A DNA stretch of 38,449 nt from an uncultured Pseudomonadota bacterium (GTDB taxonomy: Bacteria > Pseudomonadota > Alphaproteobacteria > Rs-D84), in assembly GCA_947169505.1 (NCBI GenBank), contig CAMVPZ010000001.1, positions 1 through 38,449 on the forward strand. The letters run 5' to 3'. The notes beneath the pieces are model-generated. The model saw nothing but the letters and a program-made list of their open reading frames with translations, had not been told where the DNA came from and did no database searches. A program made the position numbers and the translations under genes. Below, in pieces: positions 6,142-36,007 of the stretch (its first letter is position 1; the number at the start of each line of letters is the position of its first letter).

Positions 6142-6702
6142 TTATTTTAAATTATAAACATATATAATAAAACCATCACCAGTTGTTGATTTATATAATT
6201 CATAATCAAAACTGTACCCGGCTTTTGCAGTTAAAATTTCAGTATCAATTTCCCGGCCTTTTAATAAAAAAAGCCGGCAATTTGTTTTGTGTGTATAATC
6301 AAAAACTTTCACCAATGGGGCAAATGCACGTGCAGTAAAAACAAAATCCCCGGCCTTTACCGGCTTTTTCGATAAAAAATTTTCGATTCTGTCATTGATT
6401 ATGGTAAGATTTGGTAATTCCAATTCTTTTTTTAATTCATTTAAAAATTTTGTTTTTTTGCCAATAGATTCAATACATGTCACATTCCAGCCCAAAATAG
6501 CCAAAACAACCCCGGGAAAACCGGCCCCACTGCCCAAATCTATAATTTTAACATCTTTGGGTATATATTTTGCCAATTGAGCGCTGTCTTCGATATGGCG
6601 TTTACGAATATCTGTCAAAGTGCTTGGCGCAACAAGATTCATTTTTGTTGACCACATTTTTAACAAATTTTCATATTTAATAAATTTTTCTTCTATTTTC
6701 AT
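6142..6702 (-). CDS. rsmG: 16S rRNA (guanine527-N7)-methyltransferase RsmG (GidB)
   Basis: WSTKMNLVAPSTLTDIRKRHIEDS and the SAM motif IIDLGSGAGFPGVVLAI. Classic rsmG-parA-parB order. Confidence 0.9.
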   Translation of the reverse strand: MKIEEKFIKYENLLKMWSTKMNLVAPSTLTDIRKRHIEDSAQLAKYIPKDVKIIDLGSGAGFPGVVLAILGWNVTCIESIGKKTKFLNELKKELELPNLTIINDRIENFLSKKPVKAGDFVFTARAFAPLVKVFDYTHKTNCRLFLLKGREIDTEILTAKAGYSFDYELYKSTTGDGFIIYVYNLK

Positions 6703-6727
6703 AATATTTATTCTAACATACCAAATT

Positions 6728-8344
6728 ATGAAAGAAACAAAAAAATTTTATTCGGGTTTATTTTTGATATTTTGTGTATTTTTTTGCTCTTATTTAATCG
6801 GGCAAAAAATGTTCAATGTCAATTCACATAAAACAAATCAAATTGATATCATTGAAGACAATGATTTTGGCAATTTTTTGGTCGCACAACATGCGTTATA
6901 CACTAATGATTTTGATATGGCTGCACGCAGCGCAAACGCAATAAAATCAAACAACAAAACGGTAAAAAATGTTCAGGTTATGGCCGATTTTTTCAATGGT
7001 AAATTACCACAAAATGCTGCGTCATTCAAAGATTCCAAAGAATTGGTGAACGGATTAATATACGATGCTTTTTTGATACAGAAAGAAGATTGGAAAAGTG
7101 TTTATAATCGTCATGATAATGATAAAACTATTTTGGCGGCACCGCTTCGTATATTTCCTGGGGTAAAGCAGGGCAAAACCAAAGAAATTTTAAAATACAT
7201 TGATTCTTTGACTGTTGATGATTCTTGGAAATCTTTTGTTCGTGGCCAGGTTTTTGTTTTAAACAACGATATTGCCGCTGCGGCCAAAGAATTTGCCAAA
7301 GTGCATCCTGATTTCATGAACATAAACGATTATTTGTATTTGATGTCTTTTTACCAAGAAAACGGTATGGAAGAAGATATGAAAATTTTGCACGATGATT
7401 TTGTTGCGAAACCTGGCGGAATGTATATTGCAGATTATCCTGAAATCCCAGATTGGTCAAATTATGCGGGTTATAAAAACAATTTAGTATTCGCAATCAT
7501 CCAAAACATATCTCATATGCAGGTTATGGTTTATACTGATTTATCATTGGTATTTTTGCGTTTTGCGCAAATTATATCGAATGAAGCAAATATGGACGCA
7601 GTAAATTATTATTTGGGACAATATTATTTTCATAATGTGGGTGATTACAAAACATGTTTTGAAAATATTAAAAAATCCAGTCCGCTTTATTTATTTGGAC
7701 AATTGCATATCGCAGAAAAAGCCAAAGATTTTAAAACCATTAAAAAAATTGTACATAACAATCCATTATTTGTTCCGGGAATCCAGGTTGTTATCCGTGA
7801 ACACATAAAAAACGGTGATAAAACCCGGGCGCTTGGCATTTTAAATCGTGCATTAAAAAGCAAAAATATACCGGACGAAGCCAAAGCATATTTTTTAAAG
7901 CAACGTGCATATATTTATTTGATGTTCAACACACCAAAATATGCCCAAGAAGATTTAGATACAATTAAAATAATCAGTACAAATATGACACCTGATATCA
8001 TGTCGCTTCAGGCATACGCATGGCTTTTGCAAAATAAAAATTTAGACAACGCATATAATTATGCAATGGAATTGGTGAAACGAAATACTTCGGATGTATA
8101 CGCATGGGATTTGGTGGCACGAATTGTTGCGAAAAAAGAGGGCATAATAAACGGTATTGATATAATGGAATCTATCAGTGTGGCTGCAAATATATCATCA
8201 TTTTATGAACATATGGGCGATTTATACGTTGAATTTGGTGATAAAGAAAAGGCTGCACGAGCATATAAACAATCACTAGATTTAGCCGAAGATGGTTTGG
8301 TTGTTGTTCCGTTTGTTGAAAAAAAGATAAGGAAATTAAAATGA
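6728..8344 (+). CDS. Membrane-anchored TPR-like repeat protein, function unknown
   Basis: Start moved to MKETKKFYSGLFLIFCVFFCSYLIG (ATG 6728, one N-terminal TM) to avoid overlap with rsmG. TPR-like segments include GDLYVEFGDKEKAARAYKQSLDLAED. Its stop overlaps the gpsA ATG (ATGA). Confidence 0.6.
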   Translation: MKETKKFYSGLFLIFCVFFCSYLIGQKMFNVNSHKTNQIDIIEDNDFGNFLVAQHALYTNDFDMAARSANAIKSNNKTVKNVQVMADFFNGKLPQNAASFKDSKELVNGLIYDAFLIQKEDWKSVYNRHDNDKTILAAPLRIFPGVKQGKTKEILKYIDSLTVDDSWKSFVRGQVFVLNNDIAAAAKEFAKVHPDFMNINDYLYLMSFYQENGMEEDMKILHDDFVAKPGGMYIADYPEIPDWSNYAGYKNNLVFAIIQNISHMQVMVYTDLSLVFLRFAQIISNEANMDAVNYYLGQYYFHNVGDYKTCFENIKKSSPLYLFGQLHIAEKAKDFKTIKKIVHNNPLFVPGIQVVIREHIKNGDKTRALGILNRALKSKNIPDEAKAYFLKQRAYIYLMFNTPKYAQEDLDTIKIISTNMTPDIMSLQAYAWLLQNKNLDNAYNYAMELVKRNTSDVYAWDLVARIVAKKEGIINGIDIMESISVAANISSFYEHMGDLYVEFGDKEKAARAYKQSLDLAEDGLVVVPFVEKKIRKLK

Positions 8345-12672: not shown

Positions 12673-13437
12673 ATGAAAAAATATTTCTTAATCGGTATAA
12701 TTATGGCAATAGTTCCAAACATATGTTTTGGGGCTAGCGCACGTTTTACACAATTGGCCCGTGAAAAAGAACGCAAAATGGCGGAATTGGAAAAATGCAT
12801 GGGCTCTACCAAGGGATTAAAGATAGCGGGAATATCAACATTGGGATTGTCTGCGGTTGGTGTTGCGGCAAATGTGGTCGAAGCCAAAAAGATAAAAGAT
12901 TATGACAGCAGTATTGAATCAACCCAACAACAAATAGAAAAAACCAAAACGGAAATAAATAAAAAAACCGATGAATTACAAAAAAAATCATCGGCAGGAC
13001 AAACAAGCGACGAATCAACAGACAATTATGATGAAAATATCGTTGGTGTCGCATTTCTACACAATGGAACATGCCGGGTATATACTGAAAATCATAAGTG
13101 GAATGATGTTGACGAAACACAATGTTCTAAAAACCTGTCCAAAGGGTCATGGCTTGTAAAAAAAGATAGCGAATCTATCAATGGAGACTCAACGTGTGCC
13201 TCAAATGGCATGGACTTAGAGTTTGGTGCAACCGGCACCCCAAATTACAGCCCAGTTGGCGTTGGTGAATACTGTTGGTGCAAGATAAATTCTGGGCCTG
13301 GTACATCTAACGATTGGATATTAAGTACTGATGCTATAAACGGTATCCCAGATAAATGCAAAAATTATTGTGCACACAACTGTGCATACGCCGCATTGAA
13401 TAATAGTTTAGGCTTTAGTAATACACCAACTGAGTAA
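12673..13437 (+). CDS. Secreted coiled-coil protein with an 8-Cys C-terminal domain, unknown family
   Basis: Signal peptide MKKYFLIGIIMAIVPNICFG. Core CMGSTKGLKIAGISTLGLSAVGVAANVVEA is homologous to the upstream gene. The C-terminal domain carries TCRV, QCSK, TCAS, YCWCK and KCKNYCAHNCAY. Confidence 0.6.
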   Translation: MKKYFLIGIIMAIVPNICFGASARFTQLAREKERKMAELEKCMGSTKGLKIAGISTLGLSAVGVAANVVEAKKIKDYDSSIESTQQQIEKTKTEINKKTDELQKKSSAGQTSDESTDNYDENIVGVAFLHNGTCRVYTENHKWNDVDETQCSKNLSKGSWLVKKDSESINGDSTCASNGMDLEFGATGTPNYSPVGVGEYCWCKINSGPGTSNDWILSTDAINGIPDKCKNYCAHNCAYAALNNSLGFSNTPTE

Positions 13438-13465
13438 AAAAACCGCCATTTTGGCGGTTTTTTTT
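13436..13465. terminator. Bidirectional intrinsic terminator between convergent genes
   Basis: A-tract, stem AACCGCC (13441-13447) / GGCGGTT (13453-13459), T-tract. The tracts overlap both stop codons. Confidence 0.7.
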
Positions 13466-14222
13466 ATTTTTGTTTCATTTTTGCCCACAGATTTGCACGA
13501 TTGATATATGCACGTGCCATATCAACATCAAATTTCGGTTTTTCATCAAATAATGTTGCGGATTTTATGCGTCCTTCGGCATCTATCCATGTTTCATAAT
13601 TATTATCAACCAATGTCTTTATTTTATTCAAATTGCCGATTACATTTGTTGCAGACATGCCGCCACTGTATCCCATTGGATGTGTTTCATATATTGGCTT
13701 TTGCCAATTTTCTGCCGCAACCCCATTTCCACCAGATGCATCAAAAAGCAAAGAAAATTTCGCACCTGTTTTATGCAATTTTTTAATCGCATCTTTGGTA
13801 TTATTGTTATATTGAAATATAAATTCTTGATTTGGAAAACTTTGAATTATCTGTGCAACCACGCCCGGCTTTATATTTCCAGCTGTTTTTTGTGGCATGT
13901 TTAATTGTATGCGTTTAATAATACTTTCTTTGTCTTCATTTTTTAATCGTATCCATTCTATAATCGTATCAGGAATAATTCCACGTGCGCATATATCGTT
14001 TGCCCATTCTGCATTTACATGAATTGCCAAATTGATATTTTGAGTTTGATATGCAGCATTTAACAATTCATTAAACCATACATTACGTGGCATGCCATTT
14101 GACATTTTTGATGGATGACATTGAACAGCGATTTCCACATGTGGTAAACGTGATAATTCCATAATGGATTTTATCGAATTATGTTCTCTTGGGTCAGAGC
14201 AGGTGATATATTTTAATTTCAT
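13464..14222 (-). CDS. TIM-barrel protein resembling phosphoribosylanthranilate isomerase (TrpF-like), function unknown
   Basis: MKLKYITCSD..., IQLNMP, and FSLLFDASGGNGVAAENW...MGYSGGMSATNV...WIDAEGRI parallel TrpF landmarks (KICG; VQLHG; LLD..GG.G..FDW; L.GGL.P.NV; VDVSSGVE). The start ATG at 14222 overlaps the rlmN TGA (ATGA). Confidence 0.4.
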   Translation of the reverse strand: MKLKYITCSDPREHNSIKSIMELSRLPHVEIAVQCHPSKMSNGMPRNVWFNELLNAAYQTQNINLAIHVNAEWANDICARGIIPDTIIEWIRLKNEDKESIIKRIQLNMPQKTAGNIKPGVVAQIIQSFPNQEFIFQYNNNTKDAIKKLHKTGAKFSLLFDASGGNGVAAENWQKPIYETHPMGYSGGMSATNVIGNLNKIKTLVDNNYETWIDAEGRIKSATLFDEKPKFDVDMARAYINRANLWAKMKQK

Positions 14223-15319
14223 TTTTCTTCCTTTTTGTTTTTTAACCTTAATTGTCCACATGCAGAACCAATATCCGCCCCCCGTTCCCGTCTGATCCGT
14301 GTATGTATTCCGTTTTTTATTAAAATGTCTTGGAATCTGTGTACCGCATTGCCAGAAAGCGATGCAAAATCACGTTCGTCGACACTGTTCCATGGAATAA
14401 TGTTTACCATAACATTATGTCCACGTAATAATTCTACCAATTTTAACGCATGCTCATTTGACGCATTATAAGCCATCACAGAGCCGTTTTTGTCTTTAAC
14501 GCCCAACAATATATATTCAATCATTAATTGTCGATTATGGGCGCTTGAAAACGTAAACGCAGCATCTAAAACTTCGTTTAATTTATATTTATTGTTTATC
14601 GGCATAATTTTTGAACGCAATTCGTCATCCGGTGCATGCAAAGATATCGCCAAATTAATCGGTCGGCCCCATTTGTTTAATTCGTTTATTCCCGGCACTA
14701 TTCCACATGTAGAAACAGTTATTCTTCGCCAAGATATATTCAATTCATTATTTGCACGTTCTAAAAATCCAATAACATTTTCAGTGTTTTGCAAAGGTTC
14801 GCCGGTACCCATCACAACAATATGAGAAACATCACCATTATTCGGGTCACCATTTGGTTGTGTATCTTTTAATCTGTCGCCACGTAATTCCCATCTGGCA
14901 ACCAAAAGTTGCGCAAACATTTCATTAACTGTTAAATTGCGTTTAAGACCAAGCAGGGTAGATGCACAAAATTTACATCCCATGGCACAACCCGCCTGAC
15001 TTGATACACAAACACTGTTTCCGTATGTTGTCCGCATTAACACACATTCAATTTGTTCGCCGTCTTTTAATTCCAATAAAAATTTAGTTGTTTGATTATC
15101 AACACTTTCTAATTTTTTTACAATTTTAACCGGTAAAGTTTCAGCCACTTCATTTAATTTGCTTCGCAAATCTTCAGGCAAATTTTTCATAACATTAAAA
15201 TCAGGCGCACCACGATTCAACCATTCACGAATTTGTTTGGCACGAAATCGTGGCAAAGATAAATCTGTCACAAATTTTTCCAATTCACCATCTGTCAAAT
15301 TAAAAAGTATCGTTTTCAT
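14219..15319 (-). CDS. rlmN: 23S rRNA/tRNA adenine-C2 methyltransferase RlmN (radical SAM)
   Basis: FRAKQIREWL at the N-terminus, radical-SAM CAMGCKFC, and C-terminal GADIGSACGQL. Confidence 0.9.
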   Translation of the reverse strand: MKTILFNLTDGELEKFVTDLSLPRFRAKQIREWLNRGAPDFNVMKNLPEDLRSKLNEVAETLPVKIVKKLESVDNQTTKFLLELKDGEQIECVLMRTTYGNSVCVSSQAGCAMGCKFCASTLLGLKRNLTVNEMFAQLLVARWELRGDRLKDTQPNGDPNNGDVSHIVVMGTGEPLQNTENVIGFLERANNELNISWRRITVSTCGIVPGINELNKWGRPINLAISLHAPDDELRSKIMPINNKYKLNEVLDAAFTFSSAHNRQLMIEYILLGVKDKNGSVMAYNASNEHALKLVELLRGHNVMVNIIPWNSVDERDFASLSGNAVHRFQDILIKNGIHTRIRRERGADIGSACGQLRLKNKKEEK

Positions 15320-16140
15320 AATTTATACCTGTCATCGTTGATTATGATAACCGCTTTGCGACGCAATTGTTTTAATTGTTGATCTGCAATAATTGATGCT
15401 TTTTTGAATTCTGCATTTTGTTTGATTATTTCATCCAAATTTTTGTATTCTTTGCCTTTCTTTTCACTGCACACCAAAACCATCGAATCATCTTGGATTT
15501 TTGACCAAGTCAACAATGGTAAATTCGCAATTCTTTGGCGCATTTCTTGTGATAATTCATATTGCATCGCAGTAATTTTTTGTGGATAGCCACCAAAAGA
15601 TTCAACCATTTGTTCTGCATCATCACAATTTTTCGGTTTTGTTAATTTTTTTGCTATTTCTTCTGGAATATCTGTTAAACGAATCAACGTTATTTCCACA
15701 GGCAAGCCATGTTCACGTGCAATTTCGCTTTTTTCTTCGGCAATGTCATTTTTAGATACATCTATTGTTGGAATTATTGTTCGCGCCATTACAACTTGCC
15801 ATGCGATGTTAGCCCGCATCGCTAAACGTGCCATTGAACGAGTTGTAGCACTTAAATCACCCAAATTCATTCTTTTTAATTCTTTGTCTGCATCTTTGTC
15901 TGTTGGGTTAACATTAAATTTAGACGCATAGTCCAATTTAACATAATCATCAACAATATTTTGAAATGCTTGTTTACGATTATTGGTAGAAACTTTACCT
16001 TGCTTTGCCATTAATTCTGTACGTGCTGTCACGTCAGCATCAGTTATTGGATTACCATTCACACTGCCAACCACAGTCGCACAGTGTCCAGCCCCAATCA
16101 CCATAAACAAAGTGATAAATCCAGCAATTATTTTTTTCAT
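15316..16140 (-). CDS. SurA-like periplasmic chaperone (no recognisable parvulin signature)
   Basis: Signal peptide MKKIIAGFITLFMVIGAGHC followed by VNGNPITDADVTARTELM, a SurA N-domain pattern. Sits directly downstream of lptD, as surA does in many Proteobacteria. Confidence 0.6.
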   Translation of the reverse strand: MKKIIAGFITLFMVIGAGHCATVVGSVNGNPITDADVTARTELMAKQGKVSTNNRKQAFQNIVDDYVKLDYASKFNVNPTDKDADKELKRMNLGDLSATTRSMARLAMRANIAWQVVMARTIIPTIDVSKNDIAEEKSEIAREHGLPVEITLIRLTDIPEEIAKKLTKPKNCDDAEQMVESFGGYPQKITAMQYELSQEMRQRIANLPLLTWSKIQDDSMVLVCSEKKGKEYKNLDEIIKQNAEFKKASIIADQQLKQLRRKAVIIINDDRYKL

Positions 16141-19325: not shown

Positions 19326-20375
19326 TTATTTACCAACATTTTTCTTTAACCATGCATAATGGCGGAAAAATTCAATACCCGGTCCAGCCGGCATACCCAT
19401 CCATTTTTCACCATTTGGAATACTGCGAAACACACCGCTGTTTGCACCAATTTCGACATCATCGCCAATACGCAATCCATTAGAAATTCCAACATGTCCA
19501 CCCAATAAAACACGGTTTCCAATAACACTTCCACCGGCAATTCCAACACCAGAAGCCAAAAAGCATTCTTTACCAATTACCACACCATGTGCAATTTGAC
19601 ACAAATTATCAATTTTTGTTCCGTCCCCAACAATCGTATCTGTCATAGCCCCACGATCTATACAAGTATTTGCACCAACAGATACACGATTACCCAAAAC
19701 AACACGGCCTGTATGTGGAATAAACACATTTTTACCATTTTGACGGGTATACCCAAAACCATCTTTGCCAACCACAGCATTGGCATTTATCACACAGTCT
19801 GCACCAATTGTTGCATTTTCAATATGTGCGCCACTATGTACAACGGTATTTGCCCCCAAAACCACATTACGTCCAATGAAAGCCCCAGGATAAATTTTAA
19901 CACCTTCTTCCAACACAGCACCTTTTTCAACGGTCGCATATTGACCAATATAAACACTGCGTTTTTTACGGAAATATACGCCACGTTCAACAGTTGCAAA
20001 ATAAGACACACCAAAACGTGGTTTTTCTGCATAAATTTCACCCAATATTTTAACAATGTTCCCACGTGGCGAATCTGTAATCAAAAGAGTTGCACCTTTT
20101 GGTGCATCTTTGATTTGTTCACGTTGTAATAAAATAACAGTTGCACGTGTGTTTTTTAAAACTTCGATTGGTAAAATTTTAAAAGCAGCAGAATTTCTTT
20201 CTGTGGAATAAAATGCCAACTGTCCAGGTTTAGCATCTGCAATAGGTGCAACCCCATTCACGATTTCTTTTGCGTTTCCTTTTAATTCCAAACCGAATTT
20301 TTTTGCCAATTCCCCGGCTGTAGTTTTCTTGCCACGTGGTCCAAAAATTTTACGTATTAAATCTTTCATAAACAA
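19326..20375 (-). CDS. lpxD: UDP-3-O-acylglucosamine N-acyltransferase
   Basis: N-terminal ELAKKFGLELKGNAKEIVNGVAPIADAKPGQLAFY followed by long hexapeptide (LbH) repeats. Confidence 0.9.
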   Translation of the reverse strand: MFMKDLIRKIFGPRGKKTTAGELAKKFGLELKGNAKEIVNGVAPIADAKPGQLAFYSTERNSAAFKILPIEVLKNTRATVILLQREQIKDAPKGATLLITDSPRGNIVKILGEIYAEKPRFGVSYFATVERGVYFRKKRSVYIGQYATVEKGAVLEEGVKIYPGAFIGRNVVLGANTVVHSGAHIENATIGADCVINANAVVGKDGFGYTRQNGKNVFIPHTGRVVLGNRVSVGANTCIDRGAMTDTIVGDGTKIDNLCQIAHGVVIGKECFLASGVGIAGGSVIGNRVLLGGHVGISNGLRIGDDVEIGANSGVFRSIPNGEKWMGMPAGPGIEFFRHYAWLKKNVGK

Positions 20376-20444: not shown

Positions 20445-21404
20445 TTATTCATTATCTAAAATTTCTTTTAATTCCATCATATCAACAGGCATACGAGATT
20501 TAAAATGCATTTTTTCACCAGTTATTGGATGGTTAAATTCTAAAACTTCTGCATGCAACATTTGTCCATGATGCGTTTTCAAAAATTCCAGTAATTCAGG
20601 ATTTTTTACAGAACCAATATGTGATTTTTCACGACCATAAAGCGGATCACAAACAACAGGAAAACCATGTGAAGATAAATGAACCCTGATTTGATGCGTA
20701 CGTCCAGTCATCAAAGTACAACGAAAAAGAGATATGCCAGGTTTTGTCCAAACATCCATCACATTAACAATTGTATGTGCCGGTTTTCCGCCTGTTTTAA
20801 CCAAACTCATTTTTTGTCGATTACGAGATGAACGAGCTATGTTCCCAGTTATATCTGCACCGCCCCATGTTGGAACACCCCATGCAAAAGCAATATATTT
20901 ACGTGTTAAATCATGAGATGAAAACATCTTTACCAAACCACGATAAGCCGCATCACTTTTTGCAAAAACCATAACACCACTGGTATCTTTATCCAATCGA
21001 TGAACCACACCAGGTCTGGTTTGTCCACCCAGCGCAGACAATTTTGTATATGATAATAAATTTTGAACCAATGTTCCTGTTTTGTTCCCTGCAGATGGGT
21101 ACATCACCACACCACGTGGTTTATCAATGACAATTATATCATCATCTTCAAATAAAACATCCAAATCAAAATCATTTGAAATATTATCATATGCTATATC
21201 ACTTTGTTTTTCAGCAATTTCTATAATAAATTCATCATCCAATTTTGTTTTATCCGACAACTTTAACGGTTTATTATCAGCACGTTTGATATTAAATTTT
21301 TGAATTTCGCTGCGTGAATATTCAGGCATCTGTCCAGACAAAAATTTATCAACACGAATACCAACGTTTTGTTCATCAACAATGAAATGCTTTACGTTAT
21401 CCAT
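20445..21404 (-). CDS. rluD: RluA-family 23S rRNA pseudouridine synthase (RluD-like)
   Basis: S4-like N-terminus (GIRVDKFLSG) and catalytic HRLDKDTSG, plus HQIRVHL. The ATG at 21404 overlaps the upstream TAA (TAATG). An alternative ATG lies at 21422. Confidence 0.85.
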   Translation of the reverse strand: MDNVKHFIVDEQNVGIRVDKFLSGQMPEYSRSEIQKFNIKRADNKPLKLSDKTKLDDEFIIEIAEKQSDIAYDNISNDFDLDVLFEDDDIIVIDKPRGVVMYPSAGNKTGTLVQNLLSYTKLSALGGQTRPGVVHRLDKDTSGVMVFAKSDAAYRGLVKMFSSHDLTRKYIAFAWGVPTWGGADITGNIARSSRNRQKMSLVKTGGKPAHTIVNVMDVWTKPGISLFRCTLMTGRTHQIRVHLSSHGFPVVCDPLYGREKSHIGSVKNPELLEFLKTHHGQMLHAEVLEFNHPITGEKMHFKSRMPVDMMELKEILDNE

Positions 21405-21868
21405 TATCTGTATTCCGTCCAATTTTTACCACGTATACATTTTGATATATCTATTTTAAAATATCTGTCGCCTGTTGTTGGGCACGTCAAAATTCCCAAA
21501 GAACGTCCATCCAAAGCATCTTCGGTTGCATTGCGATACGCAAAAGAAACGGTTTCCGGCTTATGCACACAAACCAAACGTAAATTCCCGCTCATTTTCC
21601 CATTTGGCGATAACCAGACACGAACACTGTCCGCTTCGCCATAGCATGGAAAACCATCCAGATAATACAAAACCAAACCTTCTTTGACCAACAATTTACT
21701 TGTTCCAGTTATTTCACCACGATATTGTTGCCATGGTAATCCCGTCACAGCAGCCCAATCAACACTGGTTGAAAATAAACTTACCCTGGCGGGTGGCAAA
21801 GTTGATGTATTATCTGCAAAAGCAGAAACACAAATCAAAGACAAAAATAACGATAATATTTTTTTCAT
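21404..21868 (-). CDS. Secreted 4-Cys protein, unknown function
   Basis: Signal peptide MKKILSLFLSLICVSAFA|DN. No family recognised. Its ATG overlaps the upstream TGA (ATGA). Confidence 0.55.
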   Translation of the reverse strand: MKKILSLFLSLICVSAFADNTSTLPPARVSLFSTSVDWAAVTGLPWQQYRGEITGTSKLLVKEGLVLYYLDGFPCYGEADSVRVWLSPNGKMSGNLRLVCVHKPETVSFAYRNATEDALDGRSLGILTCPTTGDRYFKIDISKCIRGKNWTEYR

Positions 21869-22374
21869 TTTGATTCCTTTAATTCAACAGTCAATCTTTT
21901 TACATGTGTTGGATCAACAGATAAAACATGATTAAAAGTGACCGTGGTTTTCGGTTCCAACAATGTCACAGGCGGAACAAATGCTTGGCGTGACAGAACA
22001 TTATTACCCGCATCGTACGAAACAATAATAATGTTTGGCAAACCATATATATCATCGGTAGTATTTGTAATATCGCCGGATACAAAAATTTTCTTATTGC
22101 CGTTTTCATCTGTAATCGTATGTATGTTTTTTTCGTCTATTTTGGTAATCAACGGTTTATTATTTGAATCATGTGAAAAATTTAAAACAGCGACGATACA
22201 AAATATACATGCTGCAATAAATGCGCAAATTGCCGCAATTAATTTCATAGTTGCATTTTGGCGAAATGGTACACGTGGTGTCCAAACATGACCACACACC
22301 GCACATCTTACCGAGGTATTTGGCGTTTTATCCAATGTATATTCTGTTTTGCAAAAATCACATGTTATTTTCAT
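21865..22374 (-). CDS. MJ0042-type zinc-ribbon membrane protein (DUF3426-like architecture)
   Basis: MKITCDFCKTEYTLDKTPNTSVRCAVCGHVW (CxxC...CxxC), one TM (LIAAICAFIAACIFCIVAVL), then a ~100-aa extracytoplasmic domain. Confidence 0.65.
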   Translation of the reverse strand: MKITCDFCKTEYTLDKTPNTSVRCAVCGHVWTPRVPFRQNATMKLIAAICAFIAACIFCIVAVLNFSHDSNNKPLITKIDEKNIHTITDENGNKKIFVSGDITNTTDDIYGLPNIIIVSYDAGNNVLSRQAFVPPVTLLEPKTTVTFNHVLSVDPTHVKRLTVELKESK

Positions 22375-22406
22375 AATTAAATCCTTTGGATAATTTATAA
22401 CACATT

Positions 22407-23726
22407 TTATTTCAAATTCAACATTTCATATTTTACACGTATTTGCGTCTGCATATTGTTAATAGCATTGATATAATCACCAACTGTTGCATTAACATTA
22501 GCAGCCACAGAATTAAATATTGTTGTTGCATTAGTCCCAGGATGCGATTCCAATCTTGCGATTTTAGATGCCATACGTGCCAATTCTGGGAAATTTACAT
22601 CTGCAAAACGTGCTTTTTTGGATTTTATATCCCAATAAAAAGATGAATCTTTTGGGTCTTGGATTTTATCTGTTATAATTAATTTTGGTGTGACAGACCC
22701 CGTATATCCAACAGAAACATACGTTGCATCTATGCGTCCCAATATTAAATCCATATCGCCTATGATTTTCAAAGATGATGATTTACCAGAAGTTGTCGAT
22801 ACCGAAAAACCATTTAAACTTAACGTGTTTACATATAAATCATTTGTATAAAAAGATGAAAAATTTCCTGAATCTGCCAAAGTCAATGTTCCACCAACAT
22901 TTAATGTACGAGAATCAGATGTAAAAGCCCCATTAACCATTGCTGTATTTGTTGAAAAAATAGCATCTATGGTTGATCGATTGGAAAATGTTAACGAGCC
23001 AACAGAAACTTTACTGATTTTTAATTTTTCTTCAAATTGCGCCTTTGATGCATCAAAAAAATTGACATTGGTTATATCATGTCCGTCTAAATTCAACGGC
23101 GACAACATAGTTGCATCAATTTCATTTTCAGATGGCAATCTCCATAAATATTCAGTGTTTCCACGCATAGTCGAAGTTGTTCCAATCAAACCTTTGGTAT
23201 CTGTTATACCAAAATCAATTGCATTCGCATGAAAAGCACCAAAACCACCATGTGTCATTTCACCTTCGACAAAACCAAATTGCCCACCACCAAGATTTAC
23301 TATTTCACGTGTACGAAGCGGTGTAATTTCATTATTTGATAAAATTACTATACCTTGTAATACAGATTTATCATTTTTATCAGTACTTTTTAAAACCCTT
23401 AATTGATAATCGTCTTGATAATTTTCTGCGATATATTCAGGCAAACCATAATCAAGCAAATTATTTATTTTTACACGAAATATATTTTTCCCGGTTGGTT
23501 TCATTAATTCTGTTTTATTTTCAATAATATATCTTTCCAATGCAGTTTGAACACTTTCCATTTGCTTTGTTATTGCGACATTTCTTGCACGATTTACAGC
23601 AGTTTGTTGATACCTGAAAACAAACGGAATTATTATCGCAGCCAATGCGATAGTCATCATTAATTCAACCAACATTCCACCATGTTGAAAATTACGATTA
23701 ATAAAAGAGCGTTTTTTTATCTTCAT
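22407..23726 (-). CDS. Giant prepilin-like protein P1 (439 aa) with a PilV/shufflon-N-like motif
   Basis: Class III signal QHG|GMLVELMMTIALAAIIIPFVF with Glu at +5. Motif YLWRLPSENEIDATMLSPLNLDGHDITNVNFFDA. The C-terminal half is rich in N/S/T/G/V and looks beta-solenoid-like. Confidence 0.6.
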   Translation of the reverse strand: MKIKKRSFINRNFQHGGMLVELMMTIALAAIIIPFVFRYQQTAVNRARNVAITKQMESVQTALERYIIENKTELMKPTGKNIFRVKINNLLDYGLPEYIAENYQDDYQLRVLKSTDKNDKSVLQGIVILSNNEITPLRTREIVNLGGGQFGFVEGEMTHGGFGAFHANAIDFGITDTKGLIGTTSTMRGNTEYLWRLPSENEIDATMLSPLNLDGHDITNVNFFDASKAQFEEKLKISKVSVGSLTFSNRSTIDAIFSTNTAMVNGAFTSDSRTLNVGGTLTLADSGNFSSFYTNDLYVNTLSLNGFSVSTTSGKSSSLKIIGDMDLILGRIDATYVSVGYTGSVTPKLIITDKIQDPKDSSFYWDIKSKKARFADVNFPELARMASKIARLESHPGTNATTIFNSVAANVNATVGDYINAINNMQTQIRVKYEMLNLK

Positions 23727-24919
23727 TTATTTTGCCAATCTTTTTGCATTATCTTTTTGAATTCTGCTGCATCTGGTACAGATGGTATCGCAGTGCGTGT
23801 TAATATGAATTTAGAAAAACTTGGTGGTGTGTTTGACGGAAACACCCATGTTCCAATTTTTAACGGTGCGTCCCCAGTCAATAATAATTCACCAGATACA
23901 GTTATACCAAAATTTTCAAAAAATGTTATTTCTGATGCAGACAAATATGGTGTCAAAAGTTTTCCCATTGATATTCCACCAAATGTGGCACGATTTTGTG
24001 TTCCGGTGGATTTTAAAATTAAATTTCCCGATACGTTTATTGAATTTCCTATTGTTGCACGATCAACCACTAAACGACCATTTGTTGTGTATTTGTTTCC
24101 ATTTAATGTGTCTGCACGTATAGTTTTAAATCCGTTTGTATCACCTGTCACACGCATAGACCCAACCGCCATATTGGTTGAATTAATATTTGCCCCAGAT
24201 GTAAAATATATACTGTTTGCATCAATAACATCTGCATTCAAAAACACCGCATCAACATCAATAATTTTCGCAGAAACTGCATCAACACTACTGACATTAA
24301 AAATATTATAATTGTTCAAATGTAAATTTCGATGCATTTGATTAAGCCCGTCTTCACCCATCGTTCCACGATGTAAAAATCTTGATTTATCTGTACCCTC
24401 AAAATCACGAGATATTTTATAAATCAAATCCCCGACATAAAAATTTTCTGGTGCAGACACAGCCCAACTTTGTGAATATGCAATACCGTCTTCACGCACA
24501 ACTGCGGCATCTTCACCAATTTGTTTTGCAATATTTGCAACACGATAATCCGCCATATCCAAATCAAAAGCCAAATAAACATCAATAATTGATGCACCAT
24601 TTACTTTGTATTTATCAATAAAACCGCTGTGTGCAATCGGTGCAATTTGTTCAATTTGCTCTGGCGACATTTCTATTTCTTCTGTATCACCCCACTGTGT
24701 TTGGTTTATACGCATGAAATTTATAACATCATCCCGCAATTTAACAATTTGATTTGCTGTCGCTATATCCGAAGATTCGTTCGACATATCTATGATTTGA
24801 TTGTATAAAAACGGTGAAACAGCGATAACCACAGCCACCGCCAAAATAACTTCGGTCATAGATGCACCACGTTGTGCAAATTTGTTTTTAACGTCAAAAA
24901 TTTTTTTACAAGCAATCAT
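23723..24919 (-). CDS. Giant prepilin-like protein P2 (398 aa) with a PilV/shufflon-N-like motif
   Basis: AQRG|ASMTEVILAVAVVIAV with Glu at +5. RFLHRGTMGEDGLNQMHRNLHLNNYNIFNVSSVDA closely parallels R64 PilV ...[35 protein letters not shown] (recalled from memory). The stop overlaps the P1 ATG (ATGA). Confidence 0.6.
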   Translation of the reverse strand: MIACKKIFDVKNKFAQRGASMTEVILAVAVVIAVSPFLYNQIIDMSNESSDIATANQIVKLRDDVINFMRINQTQWGDTEEIEMSPEQIEQIAPIAHSGFIDKYKVNGASIIDVYLAFDLDMADYRVANIAKQIGEDAAVVREDGIAYSQSWAVSAPENFYVGDLIYKISRDFEGTDKSRFLHRGTMGEDGLNQMHRNLHLNNYNIFNVSSVDAVSAKIIDVDAVFLNADVIDANSIYFTSGANINSTNMAVGSMRVTGDTNGFKTIRADTLNGNKYTTNGRLVVDRATIGNSINVSGNLILKSTGTQNRATFGGISMGKLLTPYLSASEITFFENFGITVSGELLLTGDAPLKIGTWVFPSNTPPSFSKFILTRTAIPSVPDAAEFKKIMQKDWQNK

Positions 24920-26258
24920 TTCTTCCGTTTTCCAAACATTGTTTTATATCTATTCTTGATTCCAATCTTTGCCAAAAAACATACTGACAAATTATATTTT
25001 GTGATAAAGATTTATTGTTATAAACCTCATCTAATCCAGTTATAATGCTTTTACAAGAAACAGTTTTACCATCCATATCTTTTGGATTTTCAATAATTTC
25101 AAAAGAATCATTATTTATCGTATCTATATAAACATCCGGCAATAAAGATGTACCAGACGGTCTGATATCAATCAATAATGCGCCACTTTGTCCATTAAGC
25201 AATCCATAAGACGTTTGATCCCGCAAAGATACATTTGCAGCATAAATATTTTTAACTTCTATACCCATTTTTGTGTTGTACGATAAACTTTTTGAATCAA
25301 CGTAAACATCTTGGCCACGTGAAGCATCAATAAAAGAAGAAATATCCAATCTGTCCGTATAAAAATTAAAATTGTCTGAACGCACAGATCCATGAACATT
25401 CCAATCAGCCGGCCCAACAAAACTGGTTTTACCTTCGGCCATAGAAAAATCGTAAACAGCCGCAGAATTTGATTCAAATCCGCCCGCCACACCATATTTT
25501 GAAATCGTTCGCAAAGACAAATCACTGACATTCAATTCACCACGTGATAAAGACAAAGCCGCACCACCATCAGCACTTTGAAATACCGTTCTGTTTGCAT
25601 ATATGTCCGATATTTTGTTTTTTTCGTTTCGTCCAGATTCTACCCCGTAAAGAACCAAAGTATTAAACTGTGCAGTTTCAAAAATCCCATTTCTGGCAAA
25701 CAATACCCCAATTTTATCTATGGAATTATTATTCATGTCCAGTTCATTCAAAAAACCAATATTTTCATCTGTTTCTTTTTTAGAAACAATATCCGAATAC
25801 ACTGTATCAATTGGGATAATGACTTCTATATCTGTGCCATTAAGGCGCGCATAAAAACCAATCCTGCGTGCCAATTCTGCCATTTGTATTTTTGATAATT
25901 TTCCACCAGACACTTTTATAAAACCGATTATACCATCTGGGTTTTTATCGATAATCAATGATAATTTTTGTTTAAAACTGGTTTCTGGTACATATCCCAA
26001 CGGCAATCCATAACTTTCCAAAAGATCAACAAATTTATTCCCGGATAATTCTTGTTTTCTGTATGGTAAATTTTCTTTTTCTTCACGCAAATATATACGG
26101 GCGGCATTATATGCTGTTTCTATTTGTTCGGTTGCGGTATACATTTGTGCAGCAAAATCACGAGATGACAATTTTCGTGCAAAAAATGGCATAAAAGCAA
26201 ACACCAATGTTAATGCTAACAAAGCCTGCAATAAAAAATTACCACGTTGATTTCGCAA
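24906..26258 (-). CDS. Giant prepilin-like protein P3 (450 aa), Gln at +5
   Basis: MRNQRG|NFLLQALLALTLVFAFMPFF. A weaker copy of the motif (FLNELDMNNNSIDKIGVLFA). Four Cys in the last ~50 aa. Overlaps the P2 start by 14 nt. Confidence 0.55.
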   Translation of the reverse strand: MRNQRGNFLLQALLALTLVFAFMPFFARKLSSRDFAAQMYTATEQIETAYNAARIYLREEKENLPYRKQELSGNKFVDLLESYGLPLGYVPETSFKQKLSLIIDKNPDGIIGFIKVSGGKLSKIQMAELARRIGFYARLNGTDIEVIIPIDTVYSDIVSKKETDENIGFLNELDMNNNSIDKIGVLFARNGIFETAQFNTLVLYGVESGRNEKNKISDIYANRTVFQSADGGAALSLSRGELNVSDLSLRTISKYGVAGGFESNSAAVYDFSMAEGKTSFVGPADWNVHGSVRSDNFNFYTDRLDISSFIDASRGQDVYVDSKSLSYNTKMGIEVKNIYAANVSLRDQTSYGLLNGQSGALLIDIRPSGTSLLPDVYIDTINNDSFEIIENPKDMDGKTVSCKSIITGLDEVYNNKSLSQNIICQYVFWQRLESRIDIKQCLENGRNDCL

Positions 26259-26411
26259 AAAATCCCCCTTACATTCACCAGTTTAGCAATTGAAAAAAAT
26301 TATTGCAATCAGTTTTAAGATGTTGTAGCATGTATTTCGTACAAGAGAAAGATGGTAATACGTTATCATCAAAAAAGAATATTTCCTGAAATACACAACA
26401 AAAGAAAGAAC

Positions 26412-26726
26412 ATGGCTAATAAAAAAAATCAAACACCTGTGGGTCAGATGATTCAACGCTGCCACAAGTGGCGTCAAAAAAGAAAACAATATATCGATTT
26501 GGCACGTCAAACAAATGATGAAATTGAACGTGAACGTTTGTTGCAAACGGCTGAACATTACTGCCGTATCGCGAATGAAGAACAGGGCAAAATTGATTCT
26601 CAACGTGATCCAAAAGATAAATCTGTTGTTCAAGAAGAAATCAATGACACAACTGAAAATTCTGAACAAAATGATTCAGGTGAAGATGAAGAAATTGGTT
26701 TTCCAGAATTCATCACAAACGTTTAA
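26412..26726 (+). CDS. DUF4167-like protein
   Basis: YIDLARQTNDEIERERLLQTAEHYCRI resembles the alphaproteobacterial DUF4167 core (..Y..LAR......R...E...QHAEHY.R), recalled from memory. Acidic tail. Start chosen at MANKKNQ (ATG 26412). Confidence 0.55.
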   Translation: MANKKNQTPVGQMIQRCHKWRQKRKQYIDLARQTNDEIERERLLQTAEHYCRIANEEQGKIDSQRDPKDKSVVQEEINDTTENSEQNDSGEDEEIGFPEFITNV

Positions 26727-28343: not shown

Positions 28344-28799
28344 ATGAGAGAACAATCAGGACGTTCATTAATTGAAATCATCGGTGTTTTGGCAATCGGT
28401 GCAATAATGATATCTGCCACGTACAGCATATATCATTCAACAAACGAAAAACAAAAACGCTTAATCGCCAGTGAAGAATTAAAAGATATTGCACAAAAAA
28501 CAAAAACTCTTTTGGAATATTCCGGATATAAACCTGTGTCTGTGGATTATTTGATTGAAGCGGGCGTGATAAACAACGACCGTGCACCGGCAGGCGGTGA
28601 TGATTGGTCTGTGACCAGTAATTTCGAAGGTACAGAATTTTCTATTAATTTGACGGGGTTATCGTTTGAAGAATGCGCATATTTCACAACAAAAAAATTT
28701 GATTGGGTGACACATATCAGCGTCAATGAATATGAATCAAACGATTCTTCGTTTTGTATGAAATCTGGTGATAACACTTTGTCATTTTTTGCACAATAA
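28344..28799 (+). CDS. Type IV pilin-like protein (151 aa)
   Basis: MREQSG|RSLIEIIGVLAIGAIMISATYSIY: Gly at -1, Glu at +5 and a ~20-aa hydrophobic helix. Two C-terminal Cys (EECAYF...SSFCMK) could form a pilin D-region disulfide. RBS AAGGGGA lies upstream. Confidence 0.7.
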   Translation: MREQSGRSLIEIIGVLAIGAIMISATYSIYHSTNEKQKRLIASEELKDIAQKTKTLLEYSGYKPVSVDYLIEAGVINNDRAPAGGDDWSVTSNFEGTEFSINLTGLSFEECAYFTTKKFDWVTHISVNEYESNDSSFCMKSGDNTLSFFAQ

Positions 28800-34847: not shown

Positions 34848-34921
34848 GGCCAGGTGGCAGAGTGGTTATGCAGAGGACTGCAAATCCTTGGATGCCGGTT
34901 CGATTCCGACCCTGGCCTCCA
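34848..34921 (+). tRNA. tRNA-Cys (anticodon GCA)
   Basis: GGCCAGGTGGCAGAGTGGTTATGCAGAGGACTGCAAATCCTTGGATGCCGGTTCGATTCCGACCCTGGCCTCCA. Acceptor GGCCAGG/CCTGGCC, anticodon stem GAGGA/TCCTT with loop CTGCAAA, T-loop TTCGATT, encoded CCA. One C-A mismatch in the T stem. Confidence 0.9.
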
Positions 34922-34930
34922 ATTTCAAAA

Positions 34931-36007
34931 ATGATAAAACAAATAACAATTACCAATTTTAGAAATCACAAATGTTCAAGAATCTCCGTTGGTGATGCAA
35001 AAAATGTTATAATCACAGGATTAAATGGCGCCGGAAAAACCGCTGTATTAGAAGCGATTTCATTGCTTTCAGGTGAACGGGGTTTACGTGGTGCAGACAT
35101 TCAAATATTGGCACGATTTGATGGCGATGGCGGATTTTCTGTATTCGCAGAAACACACGATGAAAATGATGTATGCGTATTTTTAAACAGTGGTGAATCA
35201 AATCGACATGCCAAAATCAATAATGAAAATGTTCCACTGAATGAAATGGCAAAACAAATACGTATTATTTGGTTAACACCAAAAGAAGACAGAATTTTTG
35301 TTGAATCTGCAACAGACAGACGTGCTTTCTTTGACAGATTAATTGCCAGTTTTGATCCACCACATATTGGACGCATTTCACGTCTTAATAAATTATTAAC
35401 AGAGCGGGGTGGGGCGATAAAAAATCATGCCGATAAAAATTGGTTGGATGCTTTGGATAGCCAAATTGCGTCTACGGCGGTTTCTGTGGCTGCCGCCCGT
35501 ATAAGATATGCCGGCGAAATAAATTATTTCTTTGAAAATGGGGCGGTATCTGTAAATGGTATGGTGGAAAAATTATTATTAGAAAACACGGCTGCAAATG
35601 CAGAACAAAAATATTTTGAATATTTACAAAACAGCCGTGAATTGATTGGCGATAAAATGGTTATTGATGGGGCGCATAAATCTGATTTTGGTTTGTTTAA
35701 TAAAAAATTGGGTTTGCCAGTGTATATAACTTCTACCGGACAACAAAAATCTATTTTAATTGATTTGATTTTGGCCCACGCAAAATTAATACACATAAAA
35801 ACTGGCGCAAAACCACTTATTTTATTGGATGAAGCAGCGGCACATTTGGACGAAATGGCACGTATAAAATTATTCCACGATTTAAATGAAGCAGACGCCC
35901 AGGTTTGGGCAACAGGTTTGGATATAAATGTATTTAAAAATATTCCAAATGCTTTATTTGTCACTTGCCAAAATGGGGAAATAAGTAATATAGTAAAGGC
36001 GGAGTAA
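34931..36007 (+). CDS. recF: DNA replication and repair protein RecF
   Basis: MIKQITITNFRNHK...ITGLNGAGKTAVLEAISLL (Walker A) and LLDEAAAHLD (Walker B). The track ORF start (34862) lies inside tRNA-Cys, so the start was moved to ATG 34931. Confidence 0.88.
   Translation: MIKQITITNFRNHKCSRISVGDAKNVIITGLNGAGKTAVLEAISLLSGERGLRGADIQILARFDGDGGFSVFAETHDENDVCVFLNSGESNRHAKINNENVPLNEMAKQIRIIWLTPKEDRIFVESATDRRAFFDRLIASFDPPHIGRISRLNKLLTERGGAIKNHADKNWLDALDSQIASTAVSVAAARIRYAGEINYFFENGAVSVNGMVEKLLLENTAANAEQKYFEYLQNSRELIGDKMVIDGAHKSDFGLFNKKLGLPVYITSTGQQKSILIDLILAHAKLIHIKTGAKPLILLDEAAAHLDEMARIKLFHDLNEADAQVWATGLDINVFKNIPNALFVTCQNGEISNIVKAE

Follow-up and report, generated by a model that had tools for sequence, protein, structure and literature searches.

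Three PilV-like, prepilin-type paralogues encoded in tandem in a chromosomal operon of reduced-genome Alphaproteobacteria

The thin pilus of the conjugative plasmid R64 is a type IVb filament whose tip adhesin, the minor pilin PilV, is encoded by a single gene with a shufflon-switched C-terminus. In CofB, from the CFA/III pilus of enterotoxigenic Escherichia coli, and in TcpB of Vibrio cholerae, a pilin domain is followed by beta-rich C-terminal domains, giving a protein several-fold larger than the major pilin; each acts as a homotrimeric tip or initiator complex formed from one gene product. The glutamate at position 5 (Glu5) is the residue of subunit-subunit contact in type IV filaments, and tip subunits of the GspK type do not have it. 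The present study concerns a stretch of 38,449 nucleotides (nt) from an uncultured alphaproteobacterium of the lineage Rs-D84 (GCA_947169505.1, contig CAMVPZ010000001.1, positions 1 to 38,449), hereafter the window, in which three consecutive minus-strand genes encode proteins that we call A, B and C. As judged from profile comparison, their family is remotely homologous to PilV over the pilin domain and a mid-protein motif, the C-terminal halves being outside this relationship, and we consider it probable that all three are assembled, type IV pilin-like homologues of PilV. A role as adhesins is proposed with less assurance.

The minus strand carries the three open reading frames (ORFs) at 24906..26258 (A, 450 amino acids (aa)), 23723..24919 (B, 398 aa) and 22407..23726 (C, 439 aa). 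Neighbouring frames overlap, by 14 nt between A and B and by 4 nt between B and C, and the TTG start codon of A stands six bases after the ribosome-binding site AAGGGGGA. All pairwise profile alignments made with hhalign indicate paralogy, the strongest being C with B (99.1%, E 6.6e-19, 295 columns), followed by A with B (98.2%, E 6e-14, 293 columns) and A with C (94.6%, E 7e-8, 205 columns); plain BLASTP between A and C is restricted to the N-terminal ~130 residues (E 1e-5). Each protein carries the motif in its middle part: FLNELDMNNNSIDKIGVLFA in A (residues 169-188, 25695..25754, minus strand), which is aligned with the motif of B in the A-B comparison, RFLHRGTMGEDGLNQMHRNLHLNNYNIFNVSSVDA in B (residues 180-214, 24278..24382, minus strand) and YLWRLPSENEIDATMLSPLNLDGHDITNVNFFDA in C (residues 193-226, 23049..23150, minus strand). 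Its columns, which can be summarised as YLHR...LN.M.RDL.M....I.NV, are among the best conserved of the wider family. An earlier interpretation of the window, here termed the sequence-only reading, had proposed three coupled minus-strand ORFs of 450, 398 and 439 aa, their divergent paralogy within one operon and the common motif, and all of these propositions are corroborated.

The relationship to PilV emerges when the family is sampled deeply. Against PilV of R64 (NC_005014), the wide profile of the B family (A3; 52 sequences, Neff 6) aligned over 209 columns, residues 13-216 of B with 2-231 of PilV (hhalign 96.9%, E 1.6e-10), and a profile of 91 sequences (A5) gave 92.6% and E 4.4e-7. The match survived removal of the first 40 residues of PilV (96.0%, E 4.7e-9) and thus does not rest on the hydrophobic helix, and the control comparison with the major pilin of R64, PilS, failed (0.55%, E 0.11, 15 columns). 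Within the A3 alignment, IAKQIGEDAAVVREDGIAYSQSWAV is paired with a 28-residue stretch of PilV and RFLHRGTMGEDGLNQMHRNLHLNNYNIFNVSSVDA with one of 35 residues. One of the 52 members of the wider family matches Pfam Shufflon_N (E 0.0015), and two match N_methyl (PF07963; best E 0.0036). Shallow profiles gave colinear, non-significant alignments with PilV, so that the wide family is needed for significance, and profile searches of the Protein Data Bank (PDB) sequences with profiles A1, A2 and A5 returned a weak match to a geopilin N-terminal helix (E 0.068), noise, or nothing. The parallel between the motif and the constant region of PilV, first drawn in the sequence-only reading, is therefore sustained by deep-profile comparison only. 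No shufflon accompanies the genes, as had also been anticipated: repeats in 21300-26400 are short and at chance level, none is of the sfx type, no recombinase such as Rci was found in the window, and the gene order is identical across relatives.

The N-termini are of the prepilin type, in agreement with the initial proposal, and it is their pattern of conservation in orthologues that supports this. The class III signal of A (26184..26258, minus strand) reads MRNQRG/NFLLQALLALTLVFAFMPF, the slash marking the predicted cleavage site, so that the protein begins with MRNQRG/NFLLQ; that of B (24809..24919, minus strand) consists of an 18-residue leader, G/ASMTE, a hydrophobic stretch and PF, and that of C (23622..23726, minus strand) of a 16-residue leader, G/GMLVE, a hydrophobic stretch and PF. 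The shared plan is a basic leader, Gly at -1, Glu or Gln at +5, 12 hydrophobic residues, and Pro-Phe at +18/+19. Neither the length nor the sequence of the leader is constant across 11 related loci, in all of which G(-1), E/Q(+5) and P18-F19 are invariant; when these loci are considered together with close homologues of B and of C, 120 for each protein, the first 6-30 residues differ and conservation starts abruptly at Q-x-G. The orthologue of C in the related locus L008 reads RG/SMLVE against HG/GMLVE in the window, which fixes the register, with Glu at +5. A leader that drifts while the residues from the glycine onwards stay frozen is the signature of a leader that is removed, and A, B and C would accordingly be cleaved after the conserved glycine. 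The succession of leader, glycine and hydrophobic stretch expected of type IV pilins and pseudopilins is present in the three proteins and in all their orthologues; Glu5 is found in B and C, and A has a Gln5 that is invariant in 10 orthologues. The pattern G-x4-E...P is kept in the wider family to identities as low as ~20%, as seen in ~50 full-length representatives, the exceptions being two with Asp and a few truncated at the 5' end.

Structure prediction is consistent with a pilin domain, which in B would span residues 21-175. The AlphaFold2 model of B, built on the 91-sequence alignment, has a mean pLDDT of 75, rising to 84-94 for residues 21-170, and consists of a 55-residue alpha-1 helix (21-75) followed by strands forming a beta-sheet (80-172); we are confident that the predicted N-terminal domain has pilin architecture. 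The Foldseek match of highest probability in the PDB was a subunit of the XcpGHIJK pseudopilus model (probability 0.82, TM 0.54 on the target, E 0.26). The motif region (176-200) and the C-terminal half of B are modelled at pLDDT 49-82 as two long hairpins; such low confidence for a monomer would fit an oligomeric, fibre-like module, although this is speculation. C was modelled by AlphaFold2 from a shallow alignment (>=71% identity), and the model (pLDDT 48) yielded no meaningful Foldseek match; a helix at 17-69 is visible, and the C-terminal ~60 residues (window 22407-22700, residues ~343-439) are modelled as helices at pLDDT 75-84, the rest being poor. These C-terminal helices could be a coiled-coil or docking element without counterpart in A and B. 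A differs in turn by four invariant cysteines (C402, C424, C441 and C449; window 24906-25055), mature B and C having none, which suggests disulfide bonding outside the cytoplasm, possibly as two disulfides in an exported C-terminal domain. The sequence-only reading had described a beta-solenoid-like region rich in N, S, T, G and V after each motif. The composition holds (39-43% of these residues in the C-terminal regions), but the solenoid is not confirmed, the model of B containing only the two hairpins and that of C being poor. The outcome of the proposed AlphaFold and Foldseek check is likewise divided: the pilin N-terminal helix is present in the model of B, no beta-helix is seen there, and the support from Foldseek is weak. 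Two further candidates were set aside, namely a phage tail-fibre-like C-terminus of B, for which Foldseek gave no match at E <= 0.001 in the PDB or BFVD, and a bactofilin-like beta-helix, an idea taken from the texture of the sequence, for which there is neither a Pfam match nor a solenoid in the model of B.

The family is widespread within one group of bacteria. A collection of 5.8 billion proteins contains 747 relatives of B and 467 of C, nearly all unnamed or hypothetical, from metagenome-assembled genomes (MAGs) of rumen and gut labelled "Alphaproteobacteria bacterium"; a few entries of the Joint Genome Institute are named PilE ("Tfp pilus assembly protein PilE", orthologues of C) or PulG. 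When 1.84 billion representative sequences were searched exhaustively with a profile, 105 clusters (50% identity) were recovered, of which 57 had E-values below 1e-30. The order of genes, from the DUF4167-like gene and dnaX through A-B-C, a zinc-ribbon gene and a gene of ~155 aa to rluD, is identical in every long locus examined. In L008, the most distant locus of the identity comparison, the trio is 47-53% identical to that of the window, DnaX 73%, OmpA 66% and the zinc-ribbon protein 42%, which indicates that the trio shows no hypervariability and evolves as envelope components ordinarily do. The locus L002, whose trio is 80-84% identical to that of the window, is contig 12 of MAG 82_22-119 (JBKSMS), a genome of 891,946 bp from the genus Enterousia in the order Rs-D84 (PMC12306168). 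With a G+C content of 31-40% in the window, this assignment bears out the suggestion of a reduced, AT-rich genome. Members of Rs-D84 lack most biosynthesis, including that of nucleotides and amino acids, and probably depend on partners; type IV pili were reported in that study only for another lineage, and Rs-D84 was credited with unassigned membrane proteins possibly mediating cell contact (PMC12306168). In most relatives a protein of 1019-1249 aa without recorded Pfam match is encoded after rluD (L008 14578-18009; L006 14552-18301; L009 13385-16681; L012 14591-17650; L095 14597-17893; L096 14620-17721), which could represent a further large surface protein in this clade; the window does not have it and passes straight to lpxD (19326-20375).

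Machinery that could assemble such proteins is encoded in the relatives. In L013, a 190-kb contig whose orthologue of B is 46% identical, the trio lies 4.6 kb from a four-gene module, the spacer being OmpH-OmpA-p152-DnaX-DUF4167. The module encodes a 440-aa protein, a 254-aa protein with a match to TIGR03021 pilP_fam below the cutoff (E 8e-6), a T2SSE ATPase of 550 aa and a T2SSF platform protein. The orthologue of the 440-aa protein in the locus L031 matches Pfam PAP_PilO above the cutoff (E 8.8e-13), the ATPase is 29% identical to PilQ of R64 (E 5e-48), and the order of the genes is that of pilO-pilP-pilQ-pilR in R64. The sequence-only reading, which could match the context to no described system, is to be corrected on this point, as a module of the R64 type exists in the clade and, in L013, near the trio. 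When metagenomes were scanned with the ATPase, 80 loci with 70-89% identity were recovered, their sources being rumen, gut, termite gut and sludge, and the four genes are together in all loci long enough to show them, with housekeeping neighbours such as lpxK, lpxC and gyrB; some of these contigs measure 0.86-1.24 Mb, about the range reported for whole genomes of the group. Trio and module are usually at separate loci, and a comparison of cluster members for both in one genome found no coincidence, probably because different lineages were sampled. Candidate connections suggested by a MacB-like gene close to the module, in L028 and L035, were discarded, since the surrounding genes differ and the gene looks like a paralogue. 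Just upstream of the PilO-like gene there is always a gene for a lipoprotein of 130-138 aa (L031 7480-7896, plus strand; orthologue L035 968-1360), with lipobox LAAC/GG and no family match, near R64 PilM in size and not similar to it by BLAST; the assembly module may include it as a fifth component. Some of the relatives also carry, near pilus loci, genes for a VirB4/CagE-like ATPase and a VirD4/TraG-like coupling protein, as well as a serine resolvase (L031 350-2764 and 3789-4391; L012 20338-21200; L096 1-582), from which it follows that these reduced genomes also keep a type IV secretion system.

The affinities of this module also bear on a different explanation, which we consider unlikely, in which the three proteins, instead of being surface adhesins, are the pseudopilins of a short filament in the periplasm, either a piston of the type II secretion kind or one for DNA uptake; the module would then serve protein export, or the uptake of DNA or nucleotides that the bacterium is unable to make for itself. 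The best model for the ATPase is GspE (E 1.7e-65), far above the TadA-like model, and that for the platform protein is GspF. Neither trio nor module is adjoined by a secretin of the R64 PilN type, the trio is conserved like housekeeping proteins of the envelope, unlike typical exposed adhesins, and its operon lies among Lpt, Lpx, Omp and Skp genes, all of which would agree with a periplasmic device. The absence of nucleotide and amino-acid biosynthesis in Rs-D84 (PMC12306168) would give importation a purpose. The matches to PAP_PilO and pilP_fam and the pilO-P-Q-R order, however, point to the type IVb lineage and not to Gsp systems, and the homologue specifically identified for the trio is the tip adhesin PilV. 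Neither gspC, D, L or M nor comEC was seen in the ~20 kb inspected per locus, and A, B and C, at 400-450 aa and with their large C-terminal modules, would be bulky components of a periplasmic piston.

The search for other pilus genes raises the further question of which subunit would form the shaft. A pattern scan for small prepilins (G-x4-E followed by a hydrophobic stretch) in the window and nine loci around the trio or the module found only B and C, and when all 14 Pil proteins of R64 were compared by BLAST with the window and all loci, only PilQ and PilR were detected, PilS being without relative. Pfam, tblastn and the pattern scan agree that neither module is adjoined by PilN secretin lipoprotein, PilS or PilU, nor was a lytic transglycosylase found next to trio or module. 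It could be imagined, with very low probability in our estimation, that there is no separate major pilin and that A, B and C polymerise into a thick, heteropolymeric fibre of giant pilins, an arrangement favoured by these scans and by the retention in B and C of the contact residue Glu5. Nevertheless, the ~20 kb around each module is a small part of a 0.9-Mb genome, anywhere in which a pilin gene may lie; PilV, the closest relative, is a minor pilin, and A lacks Glu5, as is typical of a tip subunit. To our knowledge, no type IV filament is built solely of subunits of at least 400 aa.

Directly after the trio, in the window (21865..22374, minus strand) and always in relatives, there is a gene for a bitopic protein of 169 aa, with an MJ0042-type zinc ribbon (CxxC...CxxC; PF13717/PF13719) in residues 1-32, one transmembrane helix and a periplasmic FxLYD domain. 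It matches Pfam Zn_ribbon_4 (E 1.7e-7; 31.5 bits against a cutoff of 30.3), Zn_ribbon_5 (E 4.5e-4) and NCBIfam FxLYD_dom (E 2.7e-6). The survey of relatives proposed with the sequence-only reading has thus been carried out, and the linkage of trio and zinc-ribbon gene holds in all long loci. ZitP of Caulobacter crescentus, which combines zinc_ribbon_5, a transmembrane helix and a periplasmic DUF3426, the latter required for biogenesis of the Tad pilus, also has roles in polarity that are independent of pili (PMC5182063). The two proteins share the zinc ribbon, a single transmembrane helix, a beta-rich periplasmic domain and an association with pilin genes in an alphaproteobacterium, but they differ in length (311 aa for ZitP), in the identity of the periplasmic domain (DUF3426 against FxLYD) and in the context of action, the target of ZitP being a Tad (type IVc) pilus, reached through CpaM, for which no counterpart was seen in the present case; the likeness is one of architecture. 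The constant linkage is suggestive of a role in the pilus, although it is not proof.

This neighbour invites an explanation without any filament, in which A, B and C would be uncleaved, bitopic signal-anchor proteins of the inner membrane, of PilV-like ancestry, and would have been co-opted for a task in the envelope, for instance tethering or polarity in concert with the ZitP-like protein. The pilus-independent side of ZitP (PMC5182063) would be in keeping with it, as would the failure to find a prepilin peptidase in the window or related loci, the housekeeping and envelope neighbours, the termination of the operon in rluD and the strictly conserved position between dnaX and rluD. Yet the leader is free to vary while the residues from the glycine onwards are frozen, Gly-1 and Glu5 persist in members of the wider family that are 20-30% identical, and the ATPase, platform, PilO and PilP genes are conserved in the clade, near the trio in L013. 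We regard this alternative as quite improbable.

The best-supported interpretation is that the system is a chromosomal, shufflon-less variant of the R64-type type IVb filament, split over at least two loci. We propose that A, B and C are paralogous, modular minor-pilin-like proteins of the type IVb class, homologous to PilV over their first ~215 residues. Each would be made with a class III signal, and a prepilin peptidase would cut after the conserved glycine, leaving the hydrophobic alpha-1 helix, with Glu5 in B and C or Gln5 in A, in the inner membrane. The R64-like module of PilO, PilP, T2SSE ATPase and T2SSF platform protein, presumed to be encoded elsewhere in the same genome, would then build the three proteins into a tip or priming complex of three subunits, which A, having no Glu5, would cap by analogy with GspK-type subunits. 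The divergent C-terminal modules, rich in N, S, T and G, would be the exposed binding parts, three fixed, full-length paralogues would replace a single pilV with a switchable C-terminus, and the ZitP-like protein may help to place or assemble the machine. The analysis establishes the ORFs, their conservation and paralogy, the homology to PilV, the pilin-type N-terminal domain of B and, in a relative, the module and its linkage to the trio; cleavage, incorporation into a filament, the position at the tip, the adhesin function and the presence of the module in the genome of the window are inferred.

Several observations weigh against it. The link to PilV runs through B, the profiles of A and C alone being non-significant (E 0.0041 and 0.088), and tblastn of B against 72,556 plasmids of PLSDB found no PilV. 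Pfam and NCBIfam models, including those to which the sequence-only reading had looked for confirmation (Shufflon_N, PF04917; N_methyl, PF07963; the TadE/TadG families), match none of the three proteins at E <= 1, apart from GspG with C at E 0.099, and Foldseek of the B model gave nothing at E <= 0.001 in the PDB and BFVD. The residues at +1 are N, A and G/S, unlike the Phe or Met of classical N-methylated pilins. Neither the window nor 1.28 Mb of related loci contains a prepilin peptidase, a secretin or a small major pilin; trio and module share a contig only in L013, so that the module is attributed to the genome of the window by extension; and DUF3426, the periplasmic domain of ZitP, finds no Pfam match in the zinc-ribbon protein of the window. 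These points do not reverse our preference for a PilV-like filament. A pilus of this kind may be the route by which the partner-dependent bacteria of Enterousia and Rs-D84 attach to other cells. As a joint proposition, that a shufflon-less, chromosomal relative of the thin pilus, with a heterotrimeric tip of PilV paralogues, is the main organelle with which they grasp a partner or host is tentative and, taken whole, rather doubtful. Saccharibacteria, which use type IV pili, offer a parallel for it.

The remainder of the operon and of the window is of a general character. After the zinc-ribbon gene follow, on the same minus strand, a gene for a secreted protein of 154 aa with a signal peptide and no known family (21404..21868), in the same position in all long loci, and rluD for an RluD-type pseudouridine synthase (20445..21422; Pfam PseudoU_synth_2 E 3.6e-28), the last co-oriented gene. 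The 154-aa gene overlaps the zinc-ribbon gene by 4 nt and rluD by 19 nt, which indicates translational coupling; rluD is probably co-transcribed with the trio and is outside the pilus function. Scans for promoters and terminators gave only chance-level results. The family scan covered 30 ORFs of at least 120 aa together with five ORFs of the operon; it matched no family of pilus ATPase, platform protein, secretin, prepilin peptidase or recombinase, as the sequence-only reading had stated for pilus machinery, and left six ORFs without any Pfam match. The other genes serve housekeeping and envelope biogenesis (IF3, UDG, OmpA-like, ParAB, GidB, GpsA, PNPase, RlmN, LptD, LptF/G, LpxD, DnaX, OmpA, Skp, a MacAB-TolC-type pump, RecF, SspB and AccC). 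The presence of parA, parB and gidB at 4.4-6.7 kb indicates that the window is probably near the replication origin.

Some features of this neighbourhood may assist annotation. Immediately upstream of dnaX, an ORF of 124 aa rich in basic and acidic residues (26352-26726, plus strand) has no Pfam match at E <= 1e-4 and was probably annotated from a start too distant on the upstream side. It has counterparts of 97-105 aa in all related loci; the orthologue in L013 shows a weak match to DUF4167 (E 2e-4, under the cutoff). A gene for 151 aa (28344-28799, plus strand) is always located between dnaX and the OmpA-family gene in relatives and, like the ORFs at 12673-13437 (plus strand, 254 aa), 13464-14261 (minus strand, 265 aa) and 15316-16140 (minus strand, 274 aa), looks conserved and is without Pfam match at E <= 1e-4. 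The ORF at 6620-8344 (plus strand, 574 aa) has weak TPR matches only, and from its called GTG start it overlaps gidB (6142-6702, minus strand) by 83 nt. A tRNA-Cys gene (34848-34921) overlaps the 5' end of the called recF ORF (34862-36007, GTG start at 34862), so that the true start of recF must lie downstream of the tRNA.

Compared with the described systems, the trio is closest to PilV of R64 (IncI1) and TP114 (IncI2), a protein of 474 aa against 398-450 aa here. The likeness comprises the prepilin signal G-x4-E (G/WASLE in PilV), homology over the N-terminal ~215 residues, including IAK.I....DG.A...SW.V, the motif L(Y/H)R...LN.MH....M...N..NV..V.A in the same position, and, in relatives, the partner genes pilO-pilP-pilQ-pilR in the same order. 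The differences are equally clear. R64 is a conjugative plasmid, whereas the trio occupies a core chromosomal position between dnaX and rluD; three fixed paralogues stand in place of one gene with a shufflon, without Rci or sfx-type repeats; the sequences are too divergent for Pfam models or BLAST, with unrelated C-terminal halves; and pilS, pilT, pilU and pilN adjoin neither trio nor module. In contrast to the homotrimers of CofB and TcpB, the three paralogues could form a heterotrimer, and no sequence or Foldseek match to those proteins was obtained. The trio resembles GspK-GspI-GspJ in setting three pilin-like subunits side by side, one of them without Glu5 (GspK; here A), in a subunit of the Xcp pseudopilus model being the top-probability match of B, and in the GspE and GspF affinities of ATPase and platform protein. 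It differs in that all three proteins have 400-450 aa and are paralogues of one another and of PilV, and we rejected its membership of a type II secretion system, no Gsp family model being better than E 0.099 and the accessories being PilO and PilP, not GspC, L and M. With TadE, TadF and TadG it shares a small, non-aromatic +1 residue, the G-x4-E pattern, a row of pilin-like genes and an alphaproteobacterial host; membership was again rejected, since there is no Pfam match to TadE (PF07811) or Tad (PF13400) and the ATPase is of the GspE/PilB/PilQ type, not TadA/CpaF.

The kinds of components, namely the PilV/Shufflon_N family, PilOPQR machinery and a ZitP-like protein, are already known; their arrangement, with a triplicated, shufflon-less PilV in a core chromosomal position of a reduced-genome host group for which no pili had been reported, is not described in the literature searched. 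In genomes of ~0.9 Mb, giant pilin genes amounting to ~4 kb have been kept, as has a module of four genes. If the PilV-tipped pilus is real, it provides a testable candidate for the attachment of an abundant, uncultured gut and rumen group to the cells on which it depends, and it connects a protein built like ZitP with a non-Tad pilus. It would also extend the PilV/Shufflon_N family beyond conjugative plasmids and reveal a second route to adhesin diversity, by fixed paralogues and not by DNA shuffling. Should the tentative joint proposition hold as well, the plasmid PilV/shufflon adhesin would belong to an older, so far unannotated family of chromosomal pilus tips.

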